Source: Patescibacteria group bacterium (GTDB lineage Bacteria > Bacillota > UBA4882 > JAAYXC01). Taken from it: a stretch of 64,000 bases of DNA. The stretch's first letter is position 1; every line of letters starts with the position of its first letter. The notes below the pieces were generated by a model. That model had not been told where the DNA came from. It searched no databases and saw only the letters and a program-made list of their open reading frames with translations. A program made the translations under genes and the position numbers. Below, piece by piece: positions 6,091-62,814 of the stretch. The stretch is taken from positions 9,815-73,814 of the forward strand of contig JBLNBS010000053.1 in the NCBI GenBank assembly GCA_050260175.1. The letters are read 5' to 3'.

Positions 6091-6687
6091 TCAGGCCTGC
6101 GCGGGTGTCGGCGGCGGCACGGCCCCGGCCGGCGCGGACAGCGTCCCGGTCATGTCCGCGTACAACACCGCCCCGGCCATCGTGGCGATGCTGGCCGTGA
6201 CGAGGACCCCGACGCAGCAGACGAGGATGCCCGAGATGCCGATCAAAAAGCTCAGGACGGAAAAGCCCAGGAATTTACCGTAATGCCTGCTGGCCGTCTG
6301 CCACGAGGCCGAGATGGCCTTGTCCCAGGAGAGGCCCCCGTCGATGACAAAAGCGTATGTAAGGACGAAGAACGGATAGAGAAAGAGCCCGGGCAGGAAG
6401 CAGAGGATGAAGGAGACACCCAGGATCAGGCTGACGATGAGCCCGGCCAGGAATGCGTCCACGAAACGGTCGAAACCGCGGAAGATGTCGCCGAACTCCG
6501 GCGCGGTGCCGCGCAGGGCCTTGAGCGTCACGAACATGATGCTGCACATCACCGGCCCGAGGAGCAGGCCCGATGCGGCGCTGGAGATCATGTTGACGAG
6601 GAAGACACCGAGGATGAAGACCAGAGGGTAGCGCCAGAGCAGATCCCAGGCCTTGCCGAAATAGGATCCGACGGTCATGAGAGACAT
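6091..6687 (-). CDS. Polytopic membrane protein (DUF975/YciC-like), upstream partner of the DUF2752 gene
   Basis: Start MSLMTVGSYFGKAWDLLW at ATG 6687; four or more TM helices. The tool's longer N-terminus (start 6723) is probably 5' leader. Sits 40 nt upstream of the DUF2752 gene on the same strand. Confidence 0.55.
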   Translation of the reverse strand: MSLMTVGSYFGKAWDLLWRYPLVFILGVFLVNMISSAASGLLLGPVMCSIMFVTLKALRGTAPEFGDIFRGFDRFVDAFLAGLIVSLILGVSFILCFLPGLFLYPFFVLTYAFVIDGGLSWDKAISASWQTASRHYGKFLGFSVLSFLIGISGILVCCVGVLVTASIATMAGAVLYADMTGTLSAPAGAVPPPTPAQA

Positions 6688-7027
6688 CACTCCCCTGGAG
6701 TCTGTGCAGCCGGCCCGATTCATGGTCCCGGAGCACTGACTCCGGTTATAAGTGCCACGCGTTCAGCTGTGTCCGGTGATCCATGGCGCTACAGGCGCAG
6801 GCTCCCTGGCGCCGGGATGTGAAGAAACTTGCCGCCCGCGGCGTGATTAACAGGACAATTATACCATGAGCCGGAGGGGCGGGCAACGCAAACTCCCGCT
6901 AGCGCCAGGTGGTTTTTTACTTTACGTGTCCGCACTGGAAAAGTTGTGATAAACTCACCCTTGTTCACACCGCCTCTACCGAAAGCGTCGGTAAAGACTC
7001 AAACCCCGGGCGGCGCGGCTCCGCGCC

Positions 7028-7057
7028 TTGACACGCGCGGCCGGCGCGTGCTAAAAT
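7028..7057 (+). promoter_or_regulatory. Sigma-70-type promoter for the tRNA-Ser genes
   Basis: TTGACA (7028-7033), 18-nt spacer, TAAAAT (7052-7057). Predicted transcription start about 11 nt before the tRNA 5' end. Confidence 0.5.
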
Positions 7058-7068
7058 GATTCTGCATC

Positions 7069-7156
7069 GGAGGGGTGTCCGAGCGGTTTAAGGAGACGGT
7101 CTTGAAAACCGTTAGGCTGCAAGGCCTCGTGGGTTCGAATCCCACCTCCTCCGCCA
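7069..7156 (+). tRNA. tRNA-Ser, anticodon TGA (UGA); CCA encoded
   Basis: GGAGGGG acceptor stem pairs with CCTCCTCC (one G-U pair). Anticodon loop CTTGAAA. Long variable arm. T arm GGGTTCGAATCCC. 3' CCA at 7154-7156. Confidence 0.85.
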
Positions 7157-7221
7157 AGGAGCCTGTGCGCGTAATGCCACGGACCACTAGATACAGTGGT
7201 ACCGCGTGGCACTTGATACCA

Positions 7222-7267
7222 GAGTTTGTGCTCCGGATGCCATTAATCAAGTTAGTCGCACAAACTC
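7222..7267 (+). other. Hairpin in the inter-tRNA spacer: GAGTTTGTGC, 26-nt loop, GCACAAACTC
   Basis: Perfect 10-bp inverted repeat. An additional hairpin at about 7186-7216 (GCCACGG ... CCACT AGATAC AGTGG ... CGTGGC). Confidence 0.4.
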
Positions 7268-7316
7268 CAGGGGAAAGAGTCAAAAAGTCGAAAAGTTATA
7301 AAGTCATGGTTTTTAC

Positions 7317-7408
7317 GGAGAGGTACCCAAGCCGGTCGAAGGGGACGGTTTGCTAAACCGTTAGTGGTCGTAAGGCCAGCGGGGGTTCGAATCCCCCCCT
7401 CTCCGCCA
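7317..7408 (+). tRNA. tRNA-Ser, anticodon GCT (GCU); CCA encoded
   Basis: GGAGAGG pairs perfectly with CCTCTCC. Anticodon loop TTGCTAA. Long variable arm. T arm GGGGGTTCGAATCCCCC. CCA at 7406-7408. Confidence 0.85.
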
Positions 7409-7416
7409 AAGATCAA

Positions 7417-7449
7417 CGGGGTGGTCAAGATGACCACCCCGTTTTTTTT
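7417..7449 (+). terminator. Rho-independent terminator after the tRNA pair
   Basis: CGGGGTGGTC, loop AAGAT, GACCACCCCG, followed by eight T residues. Confidence 0.75.
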
Positions 7450-7598
7450 CGATATCCTGGCGGCCGGCGCCCAATCGCGATCCTGGAGTGGGTCAAGGAC
7501 AAGGGAGCGCGAACGATGACGATACCCCTTCGTACGATTCAACTTTCTTGGCCCGAGTACAGCGGATGTAAATTGATCAACAAAAGCGCGCGGAATGG

Positions 7599-38459: not shown

Positions 38460-40187
38460 TTGAAAAAACCGCTCCTCTTCCCCGTCCTGCTCCTTCCCCT
38501 GCTCCTCGCCCTCGCCCCGCCCGCCGGCGCGGACGGCGGCGAGCGCATCCTGTCCTATCATAGCGAGATCGCGATCCAAAAGGACGCCTCCATGATCGTG
38601 CGCGAGACCATCCGGGTCCAGAGCGAGGGCATCGAGATCCGACGCGGCATCTACCGGGATTTCCCCACCCGCTACCGCGACCGGATGGGAAACCGTTACA
38701 TCGTGGACTTTCAGATGGTAGAGGCCCTGCGCGACGGCCAGCCCGAGCATTACCGCGTCACGGACCACGCGAACGGCAAGCGCGTCTATATCGGCCGGGA
38801 GGAGGTCATCCTGCCGCCGGGCCGGTACACCTACACCCTGACCTATCGCACAGACCGCCAGCTCGGTTTTTTTGACGATCACGACGAATTGTACTGGAAT
38901 GCCGTCGGTAACGGCTGGAGCTTTCCCATCGACGCGGCCACGGCCGTGGTGAGCGTGCCCGGGGCCACCCTGGACGACCTCATCTCGGCCTATGGCTACA
39001 CCGGGCCGCAGGGCTCGACCGTGCAAGACGTGCACTGCGCGCTCGAGGAGGGCGGCCGCGCCTCATACACCGCCACGACGTTCCTCGCGCCGTACGAGGG
39101 CCTGACCATCGTCCTCTCCTGGCGCAAGGGCCTCATCGCGCCGCCCGGCAACGCACGCAAGCTAGGCTGGCTGCTCAGGGACAATTTTGGCCTCGTCGTC
39201 GCCATCCTGGGCCTCGCGGGCATCCTGTTCTTTTACCTCGCGGCCTGGCGCAAGGTCGGGCGCGATCCGGCGCGCGGCACGATCATCCCCCGTTTCGCGC
39301 CGCCCGAGGGCTTCTCGCCCGCGTCCGTACGCTACGTCGCCAGGATGGGTTACGACCAAAAGATCATGGCCGCCACCATCATCAACATGGCCGTCAAGGG
39401 CTGCGCCACTATCCGCGAGGAGGACAAGGTCTTCACCGTCACCAGGGTGCCGGGCCGGGAGGACGCGCTCACCCCGGCCGAGGCCAAGGTGGCGGCGAGG
39501 CTCTTCCGGGACGGCGACGCCTTCAGCTTTACCCAGGCGAACCACGCGGCCGTGGCCGACGTCATCAACCAGCTCCGGAGCTACCTCAAGGCCAAGTTCC
39601 AAAAGACCCTCTTCAATACGAACAGCGGGTATTTCGGCCTGGGGATCCTGGCCTCGGCCCTCCTCTTCGTCTTCGGCCTCATGAGCATGTCCGCGGGCAC
39701 GCTGGCCGCCCCGTTCCTCTTCCTGGAGGCGGCCCTCCTCGCCGCCGTGAACATCGTTTTTTACCGCCTGCTCAAGGCGCCCACCCGGGCAGGGCGCCGG
39801 GTGATGGACGAGATCGAGGGCTTCAAAATGTATCTCTCCGTGGCGGAAAAGGACCGCCTGAACCTCCTGAATCCCCCCGAGGAGACGCCGGCGCTTTTCG
39901 AAAAATACCTCCCGTACGCGCTGGCCCTCGACGTGGAGCAGCGCTGGGCCGAACGCTTTGCCGGCGTGCTGGCCCGCTCCGCGGCCGGCGGGCGCGAATA
40001 CCAACCCGCGTGGTACTACGGCACCCGTTGGCACAGCGCGCGTCCCGGCGAGTTCGCCTCGTCCGTCGGCGGATCATTTGCCGGCGCCATCTCCGCCTCG
40101 TCGACACCGCCGGGCTCGTCGTCGGGCGGTGGAGGGGGCGGGTTTTCCGGCGGAGGAGGAGGCGGCGGGGGCGGCGGCGGATGGTAA
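38460..40187 (+). CDS. DUF2207 membrane protein (usual partner of LemA) with a Gly-rich C-terminal tail
   Basis: Signal peptide, large extracellular domain, TM helices. Tail [26 protein letters not shown] start with GGCGGTGA 6 nt upstream. Confidence 0.8.
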
Positions 40188-40217: not shown

Positions 40218-42050
40218 TTGGTGACCGAGGCCGATCTCAGGGTCCTCCCGGCCAAGCCCGGCGTCTACCTCATGCGCAACGCGGAGGGGGACGTCATCTA
40301 CGTCGGCAAGGCCCGTTCCCTCCGAAGCAGGGTGCGTTCGTATTTCCAGGACTCCCGTCCCCTGGATCCCCGCATCCGTCTCATGGTCGGCCAGATCGAC
40401 CGTTTCGAGTTCATCGCCACCGCCTCCGAGGTGGAGGCATTGGCGCTCGAGTCGAACCTGATCAAGGAGCACCGCCCCAGGTACAACGTCAAGCTGCGCG
40501 ACGACAAGCAGTACCCTCTGCTTAAAGTGACCTGGCGGGACGATTTCCCCGAACTGCTCATCGTGAGGAGGGCCAAGGACGACGGGGCGCGCTACTTCGG
40601 CCCCTACACCGATTCCGGCGCGCTCCGCGACACGCTGCGGCTCCTGCGCCGGCTCTTCCCCATCCGTGGCTGCCGGCGCAGGATCGGCGTGGACAGGGTG
40701 GATAGGCCGTGTCTCAACCACCACATCCATCGCTGCCTGGCGCCCTGCGTGGGCGCTGTGTCAAAAGAGGAGTACCGGGCCATGATCGGGCAGGTCTGCC
40801 TCTTTTTGGACGGCAGGCAGGACGAGCTGGCCCGGCAGCTCGAGGACGAGATGGGGCGCGCCGCGGCAGCGCTCGACTACGAGCGGGCGGCGGCCGTCCG
40901 CGACCGCCTGGCCGACGTGCGCAAGGTGGCGGAGCGGCAAAAGGTGGTCTCACCCGGCGGCGAGGACTTTGACGTGCTGGGGCTGGCCGTGGGCGCCGAG
41001 GGCGCCCTGGTGCAGGTCTTCCCCGTCCGCCGGGGCAAGCTCCTGGGCCGCGAGCACTTCCTTCTCACCGAAGGGATCGGGACCGCCGCCGCCATCCTGC
41101 AGGCCTTCATCCTCCAGTACTACGCCTCCGTCCCCGAGATCCCGCCCACCCTGCTCCTGCCCGAACCCCTAGAGGACCGGGAGGCCGTCACGGCCTGGCT
41201 CGAGGCCAAAAGGGGGGGTAGGGTCCGCCTCCTCGTCCCCAAGCGCGGCGAAAAAAAGGCCCTGGTGCAGATGGCCATGGAGAATGCCGCCCTCCTGGAG
41301 GAGCAGGAGAGGGTCAGACGATCGTATGCCGGGGAACGCGCGGCAGCGGCCCTGTTGGAGTTGGCGCAAAAGCTGGATCTTCCCGGGCCGCCCCGCAGGA
41401 TCGAGGCGTTCGACATCAGCAACATCCAGGGCCAGCAGGCCGTGGCCTCCATGGCGGTCTTTCTCGACGGCAGGCCTGCGCCCGGGGAATACCGGCGGTT
41501 TCGCATCAGGACGGTGGAGGGGGCCAACGACTATGCCATGCTGCAGGAGGCCGTCATGAGGCGGTTCCGGCGCGGCGCGGCCTGCCGGGACGGGGGGGAA
41601 CGGAGCGGCTTTGCCGACTTTCCCGATCTCCTCCTGATCGACGGCGGCAAGGGCCAGCTCAACGCGGTACTGGACGCGCTGCGCGGCATCGGCGCGCAGC
41701 CCCATGCCATCGGTCTGGCCAAGGAGAACGAGGAGATCCATCTGCCCGGCCGGGCCGCGCCGCTCGTCCTGCCGCGGCAGTCCGAGGCGCTCCGCCTCGT
41801 GCAGCGCGTCAGGGACGAGGCGCATCGCTTTGCCCTGACCTATCACCGCGCGCTCCGGGACAGGCGGACCAGCGCCTCGGCCCTGGACGGGATCGGCGGC
41901 ATCGGCCCCAGGCGCAAGCAGGCCCTCCTGCGCCGGTTCGGCTCGGTGCAAAAGATCATGGAGGCGACGGTTGAGGAACTGGCGGAGGTCGAGGGTATGA
42001 CCAGGCAGGCGGCCCAGGCGGTCCACGATGGACTGCGCCGTGAAAGATGA
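40218..42050 (+). CDS. uvrC: Excinuclease ABC subunit C (UvrC)
   Basis: GIY-YIG N-terminus (PGVYLMRNAEGDVIYVGKA), UvrBC domain, RNase H-like and HhH domains. 610 aa. Confidence 0.95.
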   Translation: MVTEADLRVLPAKPGVYLMRNAEGDVIYVGKARSLRSRVRSYFQDSRPLDPRIRLMVGQIDRFEFIATASEVEALALESNLIKEHRPRYNVKLRDDKQYPLLKVTWRDDFPELLIVRRAKDDGARYFGPYTDSGALRDTLRLLRRLFPIRGCRRRIGVDRVDRPCLNHHIHRCLAPCVGAVSKEEYRAMIGQVCLFLDGRQDELARQLEDEMGRAAAALDYERAAAVRDRLADVRKVAERQKVVSPGGEDFDVLGLAVGAEGALVQVFPVRRGKLLGREHFLLTEGIGTAAAILQAFILQYYASVPEIPPTLLLPEPLEDREAVTAWLEAKRGGRVRLLVPKRGEKKALVQMAMENAALLEEQERVRRSYAGERAAAALLELAQKLDLPGPPRRIEAFDISNIQGQQAVASMAVFLDGRPAPGEYRRFRIRTVEGANDYAMLQEAVMRRFRRGAACRDGGERSGFADFPDLLLIDGGKGQLNAVLDALRGIGAQPHAIGLAKENEEIHLPGRAAPLVLPRQSEALRLVQRVRDEAHRFALTYHRALRDRRTSASALDGIGGIGPRRKQALLRRFGSVQKIMEATVEELAEVEGMTRQAAQAVHDGLRRER

Positions 42051-42081
42051 TTAGTTCGAGTTAAATATTCTTGATTTGGAG

Positions 42082-42110
42082 ATTGAAATTTTATCCCTGG
42101 GATGGTACAA
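42082..42110 (+). promoter_or_regulatory. Promoter: TTGAAA, 17-nt spacer, TGgTACAAT (extended -10), for the DUF2089 operon
   Basis: AT-rich island between the uvrC and DUF2089 genes. RBS GAGGAAGGGA before ATG 42135. Confidence 0.45.
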
Positions 42111-42134
42111 TGTTTTTGAGGAAGGGATCAGCCC

Positions 42135-42551
42135 ATGGCCGAGGAGAGTGCGCCCCAGGCCGCCGATCTGCGCGAGATGCCCAATCTCTGTCCGGCATGC
42201 AACCGCGAACCGGTCGTCACCGAGCTCGTCTGCCCGGCGTGCCAGGCGTCGATCAGGGGGCGGTTCGTCCTAGGACCCCTGGCCCGTCTGCCAAGGGACA
42301 TGCAGCGCTTCCTCCTCCTCTTTGTACGCTGCCGCGGCAACATCCGGGAGGCCGAGCGGGAATTGGGCCTTTCGTATCCCACGGTCAGGGCGCGCCTGGA
42401 TCAGCTTATCGCGGCCCTGGATTCGGACGGGCAAACCGGGGACCTTACCGCCGCGCGCCTGGCGATCCTGTCCCGCCTGGAAAAGGGCGAGATCGGCGCC
42501 GCCGAGGCGGCGGGGCTGATCAGGGATATAACCCGGCAGATGGGGAGGTAA
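42135..42551 (+). CDS. DUF2089 protein (zinc-ribbon plus HTH)
   Basis: CPAC...CPAC ribbon followed by GNIREAERELGLSYPTVRARLDQL. Confidence 0.7.
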   Translation: MAEESAPQAADLREMPNLCPACNREPVVTELVCPACQASIRGRFVLGPLARLPRDMQRFLLLFVRCRGNIREAERELGLSYPTVRARLDQLIAALDSDGQTGDLTAARLAILSRLEKGEIGAAEAAGLIRDITRQMGR

Positions 42552-42557
42552 TGCCGT

Positions 42558-43205
42558 ATGAGCCGCAGGATTGGCTTTGGCATCCTTTTGATTCTCGTGG
42601 GGCTTGGGCTGCTTTTTTTGCTCGCCTCCGGATACTCCTGGGACTGGGCAAGGATGTGGCCGCTCGTCCTCGTGCTTTTGGGGCTCCTCGACCTCATCGA
42701 GCACGGCTGGCGCGGCCTGCGCGGCGGGGGCGGTTTTCTCATCCTGGTCGGCATTTTTCTCCTCTTCTTCACCCTGCGGGTATTGCCCTGGTCTCTGCGC
42801 CAGGCCTGGCCCGCGGGGCTCATTCTGCTGGGCATTGTGAGCCTCTTTGGCGACGGCCCGAGCCTGCCCTGGGCGATCGTCCTCGTCGGCGGCGGGGGGT
42901 TCCTGCTCGCCCTGACCACGGGCAACCTGCCGGGAGGATGGCGCCAGTTCTGGCCCGTGGTGCTGATCCTGGCGGGCCTGGCGGCCTTGGTCGGGCGGGA
43001 TGACAGGTCGCCGCGCGTGGCCCGTGTGCCCGCGGCGGACCAGGCACCCTTCCGGCACGCGCAAACGGCCGGGGGGGACGAGAGGCTGGCCGTCCTGGCC
43101 CGGATCCGCGCCGGCGAGATCAGCGTCGAGGAAGGGGAGGCGATCCTGGACGGCCTCAAAAGCCGGCAAACCATGCGCAAGAGCGATTCCGGCCATGACG
43201 AATGA
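42558..43205 (+). CDS. Membrane protein with a LiaF/DUF2154-like N-terminal TM domain and a C-terminal SHOCT-like motif
   Basis: Four to six TM helices. C-terminal ERLAVLARIRAGEISVEEGEAILDGL. Confidence 0.6.
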   Translation: MSRRIGFGILLILVGLGLLFLLASGYSWDWARMWPLVLVLLGLLDLIEHGWRGLRGGGGFLILVGIFLLFFTLRVLPWSLRQAWPAGLILLGIVSLFGDGPSLPWAIVLVGGGGFLLALTTGNLPGGWRQFWPVVLILAGLAALVGRDDRSPRVARVPAADQAPFRHAQTAGGDERLAVLARIRAGEISVEEGEAILDGLKSRQTMRKSDSGHDE

Positions 43206-43332
43206 GGAGTCTGTTATTCGCAAAACACCGCGATATACACGAAAACGAATGCGATATATCACATGATTATCGGCAGCTGATTTGATCATGGCGCATCGGG
43301 ATTTACAGGATTCAGTAAAAGGAGTGTCCCGT

Positions 43333-44349
43333 ATGAAAGAGGAGCGCGAGGCGATCCTGCGCATGCTGGCGGAGGGCAAGATCACCCCGGAGGAGGCGGC
43401 GTCGCTCCTGGACGCCCTGGACGGCCCGGGGCCGGAGGCGGCCCGGGGGGCGGGCCAACGCGCCGGCGCCGGCAGCGGCTGGATCGACGGCATCACGGAT
43501 TTTGCCGGCCGGATGGCCTCCTGGGGCGCGGAGTTCGGCGCCAGGGTCTCCGAGGAGATCAGGGAGGGACGCGTGCCGGCCCTGCGCTGGCTCTCCGAGT
43601 GTTTTGACGGCCGCGAGACCGTGACCGAGCGCGCGGGCGGATTCGACCAGGACGAGGTGGAGGTGGCCTGCTCCTGCGAGGCGGGCTCGTTTTCGCTGCG
43701 CGGAGGAACGGAACAGGGATTCTCCGTCAGCGTCAGGCAGCGTTTCGGCGCCGAAGGGGGGCCGGCCATCGAGGCGGACGGCGGGCGGCTGCATGTCAGG
43801 GGCAACGGCATCGTGCGGGCGGAGATCGTCCTGCCTCGGGCCAGACGCTACCGGCTGAACCTGCGCTCCAACGCGGGCAGGCTGGAGATCGAGGGCCTGT
43901 CCGTGACCGGGGGGCGCCTGTCCACGGATGCGGGCAGCGTCAGGGCTAGGGACGTCGAGGCGGGCAGCCTGTCCATCGAGTCCGCCGCGGGCGCGGTGGA
44001 CCTGAGCGGCCTCGCCGCCGGGGATCTGCGGGTGAGGACCAACTGCGGCCGCATCCACCACCGGCCGGCGCCTGGCGCGGGCGGCAGCCACCGCCTGGAG
44101 ACGGATCTCGGCGCCATCAACGTCATCGTGCCCGCCGCTTCCGGCCTGGGATGCAGGCTGCGGGCCGAGGCGGGCCTCGGCAGCATCTCGTGCGGACCGG
44201 GTTTTGCCGTGCTGGAGGAGACGCGCGCCGTCGGACGGGGGTTCCTCTCCGCCGAGAGCCCCGGCTTTGCCGCGAGCACGCGGCGCCTCGAACTCGAGCT
44301 GCGCACGAACTGCGGTTCCATCAGGGTCGGCGAAGGCGCGGGCGCCTGA
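43333..44349 (+). CDS. SHOCT plus DUF4097 (YvlB-like putative adhesin/beta-helix) protein
   Basis: RBS AAAGGAG. N-terminal MKEEREAILRMLAEGKITPEEAASLLDAL (SHOCT). C-terminal repeated beta-strand units. Confidence 0.7.
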   Translation: MKEEREAILRMLAEGKITPEEAASLLDALDGPGPEAARGAGQRAGAGSGWIDGITDFAGRMASWGAEFGARVSEEIREGRVPALRWLSECFDGRETVTERAGGFDQDEVEVACSCEAGSFSLRGGTEQGFSVSVRQRFGAEGGPAIEADGGRLHVRGNGIVRAEIVLPRARRYRLNLRSNAGRLEIEGLSVTGGRLSTDAGSVRARDVEAGSLSIESAAGAVDLSGLAAGDLRVRTNCGRIHHRPAPGAGGSHRLETDLGAINVIVPAASGLGCRLRAEAGLGSISCGPGFAVLEETRAVGRGFLSAESPGFAASTRRLELELRTNCGSIRVGEGAGA

Positions 44350-44355
44350 GCGGAC

Positions 44356-45162
44356 ATGCCGATCAAGCTCCTCCTCGTGGATCTCGACGACACTCTGTTA
44401 GGCGGGGATCAGACGATCTCGCCCGCCAACCGCGAGGCCCTGCTGCTCGCGGCCGGGCGGGGGGTAATGGTCGCCCTCGCCACGGGCCGCATGTACCAAT
44501 CCGCGCGGCCGTATGCCGAGGAACTTGCGCTCACGCTCCCCGTGATCGCGTACAACGGCGCCCTAGCGCGGCCGCTGTCCGGCCCGCCACTCTGGCATCA
44601 GCCCCTGGCCAACGGCGTTGCCCGGGCACTCCTCGCCCGCCTGGCCCGGTACGACGTGACGGTCAACCTCTACCTCGAGGACGAGCTGTACGTGGCCCGT
44701 CTGGATGAGCGCGCCGCCGCGTACGCCGCCAACACCCGCGTGCGCGCGATCCCCGTCGGCGATCTCGGGGCGTTCCTGGGGAGGCGGCGGCCCACCAAGC
44801 TCCTGGCGATCGGCAGGCCCGAGACCGTAACGGCGCTCCGCCTCCGGCTCGGGGAGGAGTTCCGCGGGCGGGCGGAGATCGTTCCCTCCAAGCCCGCCTA
44901 CCTCGAGATCATGGCGCCCGGCGTCACCAAGGGGGCCGCTTTGGCCCGGCTCGCTTCCGGGCTCGGCATCGCCCGCGACGAAACCATGGCCGTGGGCGAC
45001 GGCCCGAACGACCTCGGAATGCTGGCCTGGGCCGGGATTGGGGTGGCGGTGGGCAATGCCGCCCCCGAGGTCCTGGCGGCCGCGGCGCGCGTGGTGGCGC
45101 CGAGCGGCCGCGACGGCGTGGCGGAGGCGGTCAGGAGGTTCATCCTGGAGGATAGAGGTTAG
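44356..45162 (+). CDS. Cof-type HAD-IIB phosphatase
   Basis: LLLVDLDDTLL motif I and C-terminal GDGPNDLGML. Confidence 0.85.
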   Translation: MPIKLLLVDLDDTLLGGDQTISPANREALLLAAGRGVMVALATGRMYQSARPYAEELALTLPVIAYNGALARPLSGPPLWHQPLANGVARALLARLARYDVTVNLYLEDELYVARLDERAAAYAANTRVRAIPVGDLGAFLGRRRPTKLLAIGRPETVTALRLRLGEEFRGRAEIVPSKPAYLEIMAPGVTKGAALARLASGLGIARDETMAVGDGPNDLGMLAWAGIGVAVGNAAPEVLAAAARVVAPSGRDGVAEAVRRFILEDRG

Positions 45163-45315
45163 AAGTTGGAGGTTGGAAGTTAGAAGAACCCATCCATGGA
45201 TGGAACCGATCCATCCAATCCCAGGGCCATGCATGGTCTTTCGTGAGATTAGCGGCGTCCTTTAGGGCGTCGTTGGCTATCCTCCAACCTCCATCTTCCA
45301 ACCTCTCAAACCCCT
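45146..45315. repeat. Palindromic repeat array: purine-rich GAGGTTrGAAGTT units, a central CCATCCATGGATGG palindrome, then the complementary pyrimidine-rich units
   Basis: The left arm overlaps the stop codon of the HAD gene. The right arm carries TCCAACCTCCA and CTTCCAACCTC. Confidence 0.5.
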
Positions 45316-45650
45316 TCCTCCCCTCCCACTATGTACAAACCCGTGTTTAGCAGGACTTTAGCTCGGGGGCGCGAACTATGCTGGCGTAACAAAGCGAGGA
45401 GCAAGCCGCTCCTCTCGCAGCGCTCGACCGCCTGCCAAGGCTCCGGTCACTGAGCCATGACGGGCTTGTATGCAGGGACGGGGAGAGAAAGGAGGTGAAT
45501 CCGGAAGATTTTTGCGTGCTTCCCAAGAGGAGGCGGATCCCGCGATCCGGCGGGCCGGGAAACGTAACTTGGCGTTGTTTCGCGGACGCGGACCGCCGGG
45601 CCGGCTCCTCCAAAGGCTCAACGCACAGAGCAAGAATCCAAGGAGGAAAC

Positions 45651-46643
45651 ATGTTGATGAAGAAGCACATCATCGCAGCAATGGTCGGCGTGATGATCCT
45701 GGCCGTGACGGCTCCGGCCTTCGCGGCGGCCAACGTCGGCGGCACCCTGAACTTCGGCTACTCCTACGACACGCCCAGCGTGTACGAGAACGCTTCCAGC
45801 GGTTGGGGCGTGAACCTGAACGGCAACGTCAGCGACGACGTCTCCTTCCGGCTCGGTTTCGAGCAGGATCCGGCGGCCGATGACGGTTACCTGCCGCCCG
45901 TTAAAACGAATGCCATGCCCGACCTGAGCGAGGCCTGGATCCAGGCCAAGAACACCCCGGTCGGCACCGTGAAGCTCGGCGCCTTCGACATGGCTTTCGG
46001 CGAGAGCAACGGCATCTACTGGGAAGGATTCAACAACGGCGACGAGGATCGCCCGATCAACGTCCAGATCGACAACGAGCTCGCGGGGATCAAACTCTCC
46101 GGCGGCATGCAGATGGAGAACGTGAGCGAGATCGCTGCCGTCGGCGCCTCCGCCAGCCTCAAGCCCATGGAGGGACTTGACGCCACGGTCGGCGTGGCGG
46201 CCGAGCGCGCGGCCGGATGGGATCCCGCCGTCGGCTACAGCGCGACCTATACCGGCATCGAGAACCTGGCCCTCGGCCTCAAGGGCAACCTGGCCTACGA
46301 CGAGATCGTCGGCAGCGCCGAGTACGAGATCATGCCCGGCATCAAGGTGAACGGCATGTACGGCCAGAACTACTGGGACGTTGACGACCTCGCGGTCGGC
46401 GAGATCAAGCAGGCCGGCGTCAGCGCCGCCTTTGGCAACCTGCACGGCGGCGCCTCCTACGAAATGGTGACCGATCGCGTCGAAAACGGCATCAACACTG
46501 GCGACCACACCGTCATCCGCGTGAACGGCGGCTACGACCTCGAGCTGACCAAGGGCCTCACCCTCGGTCTGAACGCCGGCTACAAGGTGGACAACGGCAA
46601 CCCCTACACCACCGTCGGCGCCACCGCCGGGATCAACTTCTAA
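45651..46643 (+). CDS. Outer-membrane beta-barrel (porin-like) protein with a C-terminal Phe
   Basis: RBS AAGGAGG. Signal peptide. Alternating hydrophobic beta-strand pattern. C-terminus ...TVGATAGINF. Confidence 0.65.
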   Translation: MLMKKHIIAAMVGVMILAVTAPAFAAANVGGTLNFGYSYDTPSVYENASSGWGVNLNGNVSDDVSFRLGFEQDPAADDGYLPPVKTNAMPDLSEAWIQAKNTPVGTVKLGAFDMAFGESNGIYWEGFNNGDEDRPINVQIDNELAGIKLSGGMQMENVSEIAAVGASASLKPMEGLDATVGVAAERAAGWDPAVGYSATYTGIENLALGLKGNLAYDEIVGSAEYEIMPGIKVNGMYGQNYWDVDDLAVGEIKQAGVSAAFGNLHGGASYEMVTDRVENGINTGDHTVIRVNGGYDLELTKGLTLGLNAGYKVDNGNPYTTVGATAGINF

Positions 46644-61701: not shown

Positions 61702-61869
61702 CTGCCATTGACCGATCGATCGCACCGCTTGCAGTTGTTCGTATTCACCAGACTCCGGAAGGATTTTTGGGTTGCGGCAAGAATTTGGGTAGCGAGCGGT
61801 CACAGTTGATGTGGATGCTCTCTGTCCAAAGATCGCTCAAAATTTAATAATTATAAAGGAGATTATGTT

Positions 61870-62814
61870 ATGAAACGTTATTTATTCCTCATTCCCCTGA
61901 TGTTTCTCCTTTCGCTGACATTATTGGCGGCGGAATCGAATTTCGGCGTCAAAGATCCGGGTTTACTCAATTTGAAAGGCTTGATTTACTACCTGCCCGA
62001 AGAAACCTACGAGATGCCCGCCGATCTCGAGCAACAAGAGCCCCGGGGCGTCATCTACACGAAAAAACTGGATATTCCCGCCCGTGATTTCACAGAGGGA
62101 TTTCCGGGCGTCACGGATCGGTTCGAGTGGTTCGGCCTGATCTACACGGGCACGTTTGAGATCACAAAACCCGGCCTGTACCAATGGCGGCTCGAGTCCG
62201 ACGACGGCAGCCGCCTGTGGATCGATAACGAGGAGATCATCAATAACGACGGCGTCCACGACATGACCTCCGCCGATGCCGAGCAGCAACTGGGCAAGGG
62301 CCGGCACACCATCAAGGTTTGGTATTTCCAGGGACCGGCCACCGAGGTCGGCTTGCGGCTCTTTATCAAGGCGCCCGGGGAAAAGGAGAAGATCTTCTCC
62401 CTGGATGATTTCTCCGTCGGTGTCTCCGCGGCGTTGAACAGCGTCAGCGCAAAGGCGACGCGGGATGGGATCCTCGTCCAGTTGGACGCGCAACTCCTGT
62501 TCGATTCCAACAAGTTCGAGATCAAGCCCGCGGCCGCGCAGAGCATCAAGAACACGGCCGAGATCATCGCCATGTACCCGGGCTGCCTGGTCCGCATCGA
62601 GGGGCACACGGACAATATCGGAAGCGAGCAGGACAACCAAAAGCTGTCGGAGAACCGCGCCCGCGCCGTCAAGGAGGCGCTCGTCAAGGCGAATGTGCCC
62701 AGGAACACCCGCTTTGAAGTCATCGGTTACGGGGAAACCCGGCCCGTGGCGGATAATGGTACGGAAGCGGGGCGGGCCAAGAACCGGCGGGTGGAGATCC
62801 TGATCGTGCCGTGA
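61870..62814 (+). CDS. Secreted PA14-domain protein with a C-terminal OmpA-like peptidoglycan-binding domain
   Basis: RBS AAAGGAG. Signal peptide. PA14 core (YQWRLESDDGSRLWIDNEEIINNDGVH). OmpA core (RIEGHTDNIGS...NRRVEI). The 5' end is AT-rich. Confidence 0.8.
   Translation: MKRYLFLIPLMFLLSLTLLAAESNFGVKDPGLLNLKGLIYYLPEETYEMPADLEQQEPRGVIYTKKLDIPARDFTEGFPGVTDRFEWFGLIYTGTFEITKPGLYQWRLESDDGSRLWIDNEEIINNDGVHDMTSADAEQQLGKGRHTIKVWYFQGPATEVGLRLFIKAPGEKEKIFSLDDFSVGVSAALNSVSAKATRDGILVQLDAQLLFDSNKFEIKPAAAQSIKNTAEIIAMYPGCLVRIEGHTDNIGSEQDNQKLSENRARAVKEALVKANVPRNTRFEVIGYGETRPVADNGTEAGRAKNRRVEILIVP

Follow-up and report, generated by a model that had tools for sequence, protein, structure and literature searches.

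Proteins of the DUF2089 family have been linked computationally to two modules of envelope-stress systems by Ravi et al. 2024 (mSystems, PMC11237479), who defined the Toastrack domain and the LiaI-LiaF-TM transmembrane (TM) module, and split DUF2089 into a zinc ribbon (ZnR), a helix-turn-helix (HTH) and a SHOCT-like part. The same study described a four-gene context comprised of a sigma factor, a zf-HC2/HEAT anti-sigma factor, a membrane-anchored Toastrack protein and DUF2089, some instances of which include LiaI-LiaF-TM anchors, and put forward a role in lia-like signalling for the DUF2089/Toastrack contexts (PMC11237479). In Bacillus subtilis, LiaF consists of LiaF-TM and Toastrack (DUF2154), and LiaG of a TM segment and DUF4097; both are membrane-proximal envelope-stress regulators of the LiaIH-GFSR group. 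The yvlABCD genes are under sigma-W control. The liaXYZ genes correspond to YvlB-PspC-YvlD (PMC10269926). Here, we describe a related locus at positions 42,082 to 44,349 of a 64,000-nucleotide (nt) stretch of contig JBLNBS010000053.1, referred to below as the window. It contains a DUF2089 regulator (g1), a LiaI/LiaF-type membrane protein (g2) and a SHOCT-like Toastrack protein (g3). The operon is a variant of the computationally described, experimentally uncharacterised DUF2089–Toastrack–LiaF-TM kind, the outline of which is already published. An earlier note, made from the sequence of the window, had likened the trio to LiaF/PspC-type envelope-stress modules; the module is not new ground, DUF2089 having been linked to Toastrack and LiaI-LiaF-TM in PMC11237479. 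The new result of the present analysis is a conserved operator-like motif before DUF2089 genes. We consider it an even bet that the locus is a sigma-A-driven operon for an autorepressed, kinase-free, Lia/Psp-associated membrane-signal module, in which hairpins would join the parts of a split LiaF and tether the regulator.

The earlier note had assigned the three products to DUF2089 (zinc ribbon and HTH), LiaF-like and DUF4097 proteins, and searches with Pfam returned the same domains. For g1, the DUF2089 HTH (PF09862) scored 70.5 bits (cut-off 33.4) and Zn_ribbon_DUF2089 (PF22747) scored 37.4 bits (cut-off 27.6), and the N-terminus carries the CPxC ... CxxC ribbon. In an alignment with 40 homologues, cysteines C19, C22, C33 and C36 are invariant, as is the helix S80-Y81-P82-T83-V84-R85 of the SYPTVRxRLD HTH motif. 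The AlphaFold2 (AF2) model of g1, with a predicted local distance difference test score (pLDDT) of 85, consists of a β-ribbon, a three-helix HTH (54–96) and a two-helix hairpin (101–137), the helices of which have pLDDT >90. No solved structure of a DUF2089 protein was found, and the fold matches were weak and at the HTH level (E at least 0.06), to sigma-70 region 4, GerE/LuxR-type (VpsT) and PucR-type HTHs. There is no TM segment in g1.

The Pfam matches of g2 are to LiaI-LiaF-like_TM1 (64.6 bits, in three stretches) and LiaF-TM (45 bits), both with a cut-off of 27. The protein has six short hydrophobic segments, with positive charge at the N-terminus, in the 47–58 loop and in the long C-terminal tail, a pattern that predicts an N-in/C-in topology and would place the SHOCT-like tail on the cytoplasmic side, where g1 and g3 are expected to be. 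The nearest relatives outside the clade (P0147, P0149–P0152 and P0157), identified by scanning 1.84 billion representative proteins, bear a C-terminal GAF domain. As GAF is cytoplasmic, these relatives agree with the C-in topology, and they suggest that the g2-type TM module can be reused as the membrane input of various cytoplasmic domains. The combination of LiaF-TM with a SHOCT-like tail recurs outside the clade in P0146 only. The g2 family itself is narrow, with 18 matches in a word search and two representatives at E <1e-30 in the exhaustive scan. Pfam found no Toastrack part in g2. We considered the possibility that g2 is LiaF proper, but rejected it, as there is no Toastrack in the same chain and no adjoining LiaS-type kinase or LiaR-type regulator. 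A Rosetta-stone fusion of the g2 TM module to Toastrack via a SHOCT-like linker was likewise rejected, since the nearest relatives outside the clade have GAF.

In g3, Toastrack DUF4097 (PF13349) was detected at 27.8 bits (cut-off 22.9). The AF2 model, which was based on seven sequences (a word-indexed search gave six homologues), has a mean pLDDT of 81. Helices 2–13 and 19–30 form an N-terminal hairpin. Then come a disordered segment rich in Gly and Ala, a helical linker modelled with low confidence, and a β-helix at 95–335 (pLDDT ≈90). The best Foldseek match in the PDB was 4QRK (E 4.4e-10), the reference structure by which Toastrack was defined in Ravi et al. 2024 (PMC11237479), followed by the Toastrack-type “putative adhesins” 3PET, 4YGU, 4OPW and 3LJY. 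The proposed Lia/Psp-type kinship is thus supported both by the LiaI/LiaF-TM module of g2 and by the match of the g3 model to Toastrack structures. The term “adhesin-like”, which the earlier note applied to the DUF4097 protein, is a structural-genomics legacy: neither a signal peptide nor a TM segment was found in g3, which is most simply cytoplasmic because it lacks a hydrophobic segment. Orthology of g3 to LiaG (25.6 bits, against a cut-off of 285 for NCBIfam NF049997) and to LiaX (12.6 bits, against 350 for NF038025) was rejected.

A similar helical hairpin is present in g3 and g2 and probably in g1. Residues 3–32 of g3 match the SHOCT-like family PF22746 with 41.1 bits (cut-off 27). The match to g2 residues 174–203 is 19.4 bits (E 7.9e-4); seven close g2 homologues have a precomputed PF22746 match, and the tail sequence RLxILARIRAGEISVEEGAAILEGLK is kept across 16 homologues. 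In g1, the tail LSRLEKGEIGAAEAAGLI (residues 107–130) scores 13.7 bits with PF22746 (E 0.049), and 25.8 bits with a profile trained solely on the DUF2089 tails of 39 other proteins. That profile also matches g2 at 175–192 (8.1 bits) and g3 at 4–26 (7.2 bits), and the tail motif LEKGEItaeEA is almost universal in the 40 aligned DUF2089 proteins. Classical SHOCT (PF09851) was not listed by Pfam for g1, g2 or g3 at E up to 0.1. Judged by these profiles, the hairpin of the trio is the “SHOCT-like_DUF2089-C” family PF22746, separate from classical SHOCT. The earlier note had counted two SHOCT proteins. Its C-terminal copy in g2 and N-terminal copy in g3 hold under profile searches, but the count and the family need revision, as g1 probably has a third copy and the family is PF22746. 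Any model of tethering depends above all on this third copy, which lies on the regulator.

To place the locus in the wider family, which is widespread (599 matches in a first search and 593 loci in a genome scan), we sampled 80 genome loci that contain DUF2089, the majority from Bacillota and some from other phyla. In 70 of these, a co-directional gene lies directly 3' of DUF2089, and Pfam detected PF22746 in 65/70 of these genes and Toastrack in 14/70. (A local Toastrack profile gave 20/70, a count that depends on the sequences used to train the profile; we rely on the Pfam figure.) Thus, the conserved unit is DUF2089 plus a partner that starts with the same hairpin, after which comes Toastrack in some cases and a short unassigned domain in others. 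The idea that SHOCT-type domains link these proteins, put forward in the earlier note, thereby gains strong comparative support, although physical contacts between the hairpins are our extrapolation from this pairing.

The complete arrangement has a narrower distribution. The order DUF2089, LiaF-TM, Toastrack, HAD hydrolase is kept in L001 (downstream of uvrC), L081 and L084, while the short contigs L086 and L087 each show only an adjacent pair of the trio genes. The relatives that keep the order (where flanks exist) are 53–68% identical. The trio is therefore syntenic in other genomes, as a module should be, but it is confined to one narrow clade, and the LiaF-TM insertion is specific to the clade of the window; only the pair of DUF2089 and SHOCT-like partner is widespread. 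In the metagenomic loci L090, L101, L107 and L114, LiaF-TM is fused directly to a region that matches the local Toastrack profile, which fits the reading of g2 and g3 as a split LiaF. A Clostridial variant (L022 at 6391–7479, L010 at 6387–7490 and ≈20 other loci) consists, in this order, of DUF2089, a SHOCT-like protein with the short domain, an unassigned protein of ≈100 residues and a Phage_holin_4_2 membrane protein. On visual inspection, the ≈100-residue protein and the short domain have similar C-terminal strands.

Because the recognition helix is invariant across the DUF2089 family, we looked for a shared motif in the upstream DNA. The k-mer ATATTAAT is present in 41/75 DUF2089 upstream regions and in 7/150 control intergenic regions from the same loci. 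There are 86 copies of the exact palindrome TTAA-N5-TTAA, distributed over 54 of 73 upstream regions, compared to 3 of 150 controls, and the difference persists when only regions with at least 70% A+T are considered (49/53 versus 2/51). The spacing is specific: N5 gives 86 sites and N8, which is the gap between neighbouring sites, gives 47, whereas the other spacers from 0 to 11 give 3–17, with ≈5 expected per spacer from shuffles. The full family consensus is A-TTAA-W5-TTAA-T (or, less restrictively, A-TTAA-N5-TTAA-T). When the sequences were anchored on promoters of the form TTGAC-N-TAnnnT (47 loci), the site was found to start exactly at −21 from the first T of the −35 hexamer in 29 loci and at −42 in 21 loci. 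In 17 of the 47 promoters, the TTGA of the −35 hexamer is itself followed by N5 and TTAA, so that a third site is embedded in the promoter. The promoter-anchored consensus, for which the motif was not required, reads a.aTtAA.a.t.TtAAta.a.ataTTAAtattaTTAAt.tt..taTTGACAt..ttAA.......t..TATAaT. In the 797 kb of related loci searched, 94 of 167 exact sites fall within 200 nt before DUF2089 genes, which make up 2% of the sequence (≈64-fold enrichment). The remaining sites are scattered singletons, mostly inside open reading frames (ORFs), and a wider regulon was rejected.

The core promoters of DUF2089 genes are unusually good, matching at least 11 of the 12 TTGACA/TATAAT positions in 40/73 cases versus 3/150 controls, a pattern that fits repression. 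Palindromic sites whose halves are 9 bp apart, their arrangement in arrays phased by two helical turns, the overlap with the −35 hexamer and the near-consensus promoters together form the trace expected of a dimeric, cooperatively binding autorepressor, for which g1 would be a candidate. Among the relatives that keep the gene order, L001 has a perfect TTAAaaataTTAA at −21, the same offset as the degenerate copy in the window (Table 1), and L081 and L084 have TAAAaatagTTAA at −21 plus an embedded TTGAaattaTTAA. The motif makes the function of the DUF2089 regulator directly testable, through a 13-bp site, a 21-bp phasing and a near-consensus promoter, in cultivable species of Bacillus, Alicyclobacillus, Acetobacterium or Halothermothrix.

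In the mechanism that we propose, DUF2089 dimers would bind the phased TTAA-N5-TTAA operators abutting and overlapping the −35 hexamer, and would thereby repress an intrinsically strong promoter. The SHOCT-like hairpins would pair, such that g2 and g3 rebuild, non-covalently, the “TM + Toastrack” combination of LiaF and LiaG. A membrane perturbation sensed by this complex would alter which of the SHOCT-like partners is available, and g1 would be captured at or released from the membrane via the third hairpin, leaving the operon derepressed. The signal may be envelope stress. If this model holds, DUF2089 operons would be a compact alternative to LiaFSR and Psp, conveying the state of the membrane to transcription through a 30-residue adaptor. 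A more general and tentative idea, which we regard as doubtful, is that the SHOCT-like hairpin might be a portable heterotypic “zipper” for one-step transmembrane signalling without a kinase, protease or sigma factor, which would join a six-TM LiaF-type sensor to a soluble Toastrack protein as a split LiaF, and reversibly tether a zinc-ribbon/sigma-4-like autorepressor with operators that are conserved in the diverse genomes sampled, most of them from Bacillota. If so, this way of signalling from the membrane to DNA would be a general one, both in Bacillota and beyond that phylum.

Several observations weigh against the autorepressed, hairpin-tethered module, the first of which come from the operator region of the window itself. 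The exact TTAA-N5-TTAA is absent from the window, and the six matches with one mismatch all lie elsewhere than the g1 promoter, so that only a degenerate site can be claimed. The copy at −21 has two mismatches, one per half-site, and its position weight matrix (PWM) score, although the fourth best among 63,986 positions (the three better ones being overlapping registers of one site near 61840), is below the lower quartile of the family. The second half-site of the embedded copy is TATC instead of the TTAA found in 17/47 family promoters, and it overlaps a 5+1+5 palindrome, ATCCCtGGGAT (42093–42103), inside the spacer between the −35 and −10 hexamers; in place of this palindrome, L081 and L084 carry CCCTGGGAGG downstream of the −10. 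TTAA-N5-TTAA could also be bound by another factor or be in part an UP element. Furthermore, the SHOCT-like scores of g2 and g1 are under the curated Pfam cut-off, SHOCT-like domains were predicted to be inner-leaflet anchors and not mutual partners (Ravi et al. 2024, PMC11237479), and no experimental work on any DUF2089 protein was found in the literature, where the family appears only as unknown. Finally, L082 and L083 lack the DUF2089 gene, while the LiaF-TM/SHOCT-like, SHOCT-like/Toastrack and HAD genes are kept. The place of DUF2089 is taken by an AT-rich non-coding stretch of ≈620 nt (4380–5000 in L082, 3500–3926 in L083), and the HAD gene is followed by a HisKA_3 kinase and a GerE-type response regulator. 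The membrane pair can thus be retained where no regulator adjoins it. In addition, uvrC and HAD are also syntenic, so that the gene order is in part a conserved neighbourhood and need not reflect function.

The best PWM match in the window, TTAATAATTATAA (61843–61857, one mismatch), lies 13 nt ahead of an envelope gene with PA14 and OmpA domains (61870–62814), and may be just an AT-rich ribosome-binding region.

The prediction of inner-leaflet anchoring leads to an alternative in which the hairpins are amphipathic anchors, each protein reaches the membrane alone, and the regulator is held or released according to the state of the lipid. The prediction of Ravi et al. covers SHOCT-like domains in fusions with a wide range of soluble domains that are unrelated to one another, and both g1 and g3, having no TM segments, would need a route to the membrane. 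However, the six-TM g2 keeps a conserved SHOCT-like tail, where a plain anchor would be redundant, and the near-obligate adjacency of two SHOCT-like genes (65/70) is easier to account for by pairing. We therefore consider pure lipid anchoring unlikely. That an integral membrane protein retains the hairpin argues for a role of the hairpin in protein–protein contact, beyond that of a lipid anchor.

The sign of regulation might also be the reverse of that in the autorepression model, with DUF2089 an activator that its co-transcribed membrane partners keep inactive, much as an anti-sigma factor does its sigma factor, until stress frees it for the TTAA sites. The HTH resembles sigma region 4, which is what anti-sigma factors sequester; the strongest sites are upstream of the −35 hexamer (−21 and −42), in the region used by activators and UP-element contacts; extracytoplasmic function (ECF) sigma factors follow the pattern of being transcribed together with their inhibitors; and the published DUF2089 contexts include sigma/anti-sigma pairs. 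On the other hand, activators are seldom needed at promoters as close to consensus as those of the DUF2089 genes (at least 11/12 positions in 40/73 versus 3/150), and the promoter in the window has an extended −10. The third site over the −35 hexamer and spacer in 17/47 promoters also suggests occlusion. On this evidence, we think activation quite improbable.

The features of the locus are listed in Table 1. The promoter before g1 has TTGAAA at 42083–42088 and TACAAT at 42106–42111 with an upstream TG, and matches the consensus at 10/12 positions. It is the sole sigma-70-like site in a promoter scan of 41500–45500 (shuffles gave a mean of 0.4), in line with the promoter named in the earlier note, and its −35 hexamer lies 33 nt past the end of uvrC at 42050. 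The tight packing of the trio was confirmed from the ORF coordinates, with gaps of 6 nt between g1 and g2 and 127 nt between g2 and g3. The Shine-Dalgarno sequence of g2 overlaps the g1 stop, which, together with the 6-nt gap, suggests translational coupling. For g3, we took the start to be the ATG preceded by an AAGGAG Shine-Dalgarno sequence, although the longest ORF starts at 43282. With ORFs, domains and promoter all confirmed, the three-gene module is real as observed; its extent was underestimated in the earlier note, since the HAD/Cof hydrolase gene begins only 6 nt past the end of g3 and the transcription unit thus probably has four genes. The hydrolase is probably a co-transcribed member of the operon, but its presence may also reflect only old synteny.

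Table 1. Coordinates of the operon and associated features, numbered from the first nucleotide of the window.
Feature	Positions	Strand	Description
g1 (DUF2089 regulator)	42135–42551	+	138 aa; 4-Cys zinc ribbon, sigma-region-4/GerE-like HTH, probable C-terminal SHOCT-like hairpin
g2 (six-TM LiaI/LiaF-type membrane protein)	42558–43205	+	215 aa; predicted cytoplasmic C-terminal SHOCT-like tail ≈174–203
g3 (SHOCT-like hairpin, flexible/helical linker, Toastrack DUF4097 β-helix)	43333–44349	+	338 aa
HAD/Cof-type hydrolase gene	44356–45162	+	Pfam Hydrolase_3, 3.2e-54
Sigma-70-type promoter	42083–42111	+	TTGAAA, 17-nt spacer, TGgTACAAT (extended −10)
g2–g3 spacer	43206–43332		127 nt, AT-rich, 19-nt direct repeat at 21-nt spacing
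Degenerate operator-like copy	42061–42075		T-TAAA-TATTC-TTGA-T; −21 register from −35 hexamer

The two copies of the repeat in the g2–g3 spacer are CGCAAAACACCGCGATATA and CGAAAACGAATGCGATATA, in a contig with 66% G+C. The scan of 41500–45500 found no promoter-like site in this spacer, which shows no conservation in L001, L081, L082 and L084; an internal promoter was therefore rejected. Rfam gave zero matches in 41900–44500 at E up to 1, and only two tRNAs in the whole window, and a regulatory RNA in the leader or in the g2–g3 spacer was rejected on the basis of the empty 41900–44500 interval.

The window neighbours of the trio are uvrC, the HAD hydrolase gene, a 382-residue ORF and an ABC ATPase gene. 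As had been noted, no kinase or response regulator adjoins the trio, the flanks of which are uvrC and the HAD hydrolase, and no sigma or anti-sigma gene is present among the flanking genes. The order uvrC, module, HAD is found in L001, L081 and L084 and in the distant Clostridia-type loci L010, L024 and L077, and, with the module lacking DUF2089, in L082 and L083. This raises the question of whether the genes are neighbours merely by inherited order, with the promoter driving a mixed housekeeping operon, as the recurrence of uvrC upstream and HAD downstream in close and distant Bacillota loci and the loss of the DUF2089 gene from L082/L083 with its neighbours kept might indicate. We hold this to be very unlikely, given that one rare 30-residue domain is common to three adjacent proteins, that DUF2089 and its SHOCT-like partner are adjacent in 65/70 genomes of differing wider context, and that the 6-nt gap and overlapping Shine-Dalgarno/stop suggest translational coupling. 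An origin as a mobile defence, toxin-antitoxin or phage-derived cassette, in which a small autorepressor would control membrane-damaging or holin-like effectors, is suggested by the similar layout (small HTH autoregulator, strong promoter, operator arrays, membrane proteins) and by the Phage_holin_4_2 protein of the Clostridial variants, but it is hardly credible and was rejected, as PADLOC and PHROG gave no meaningful match (best E 0.003 and 0.005, over short stretches), the chromosomal site between uvrC and HAD is stable, without an integrase or repeat boundaries, and the Phage_holin_4_2 family also includes the YvlD/LiaZ-type proteins encoded in stress operons of the liaXYZ type.

Some other features of the region were noted in passing. 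Upstream of uvrC, a DUF2207 membrane protein (38460–40187) ends in a long Gly-rich tail. Inside the 382-residue ORF after HAD (45495–46643), for which Pfam gave no match, lies a start that resembles a signal peptide (MLMKKHIIAAMVGVMILAVTAPAFAAA); the product may be an outer-membrane or surface protein. The taxon labels of the metagenome-assembled genomes (MAGs) look unreliable: P0121, an NCBI MAG protein that is 100% identical to g2 and is encoded on a 79.8-kb contig, is labelled “Patescibacteria group”, and the closest genome locus is labelled “Bacteroidota”. Against these labels stand the G+C content of the contig, the Bacillota-like promoters and the DUF2089 homologues, which are mostly from Bacillota; an OmpA-domain protein is also encoded.

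The operon is distinct from the Psp system, in that neither a PspA/Snf7-family effector nor PspC was matched by Pfam in the four operon proteins, the part of the window that was scanned for PspA and PspC. The two modules of B. subtilis LiaF and LiaG are both present in g2 and g3 taken together, but here these are on separate polypeptides, and there is no LiaS/LiaR pair and no PspA/LiaH. YvlB of B. subtilis has the same SHOCT-like + Toastrack architecture as g3, and YvlD/LiaZ-type Phage_holin_4_2 proteins are present in Clostridial DUF2089 operons. The operon differs from yvlABCD and liaXYZ in its regulator, as liaXYZ is controlled by LiaR and yvlABCD by sigma-W, and in having no PspC; LiaX of Enterococcus has been reported to be surface-exposed and to bind daptomycin. 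The HAAS-PadR-like systems (Ravi et al.), comprised of a PadR repressor, a DUF1700 membrane protein and Toastrack, are likewise kinase-free; their small HTH protein is autoregulatory and shares a transcript with membrane-associated and Toastrack proteins. They have a winged HTH where g1 has a ZnR and a sigma-4-like HTH, and the HAAS helical domain in place of the SHOCT-like hairpin.

The operon is of the same kind as the DUF2089 contexts of Ravi et al., with which the locus shares a regulator made of ZnR, DUF2089-HTH and, probably, SHOCT-like parts and the association with Toastrack and LiaI-LiaF-TM. It is distinct from the four-gene context, as the trio has no adjoining sigma/anti-sigma pair and the Toastrack protein g3 is soluble. 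It differs also in that LiaF-TM is encoded apart and bears a SHOCT-like tail of its own, and Toastrack has a SHOCT-like head. We did not find this split arrangement in the text or tables of PMC11237479, which reports no operator. The contribution of the window itself is thus the split “LiaF-TM / Toastrack” arrangement, in which the SHOCT-like tag is carried by an integral membrane protein.

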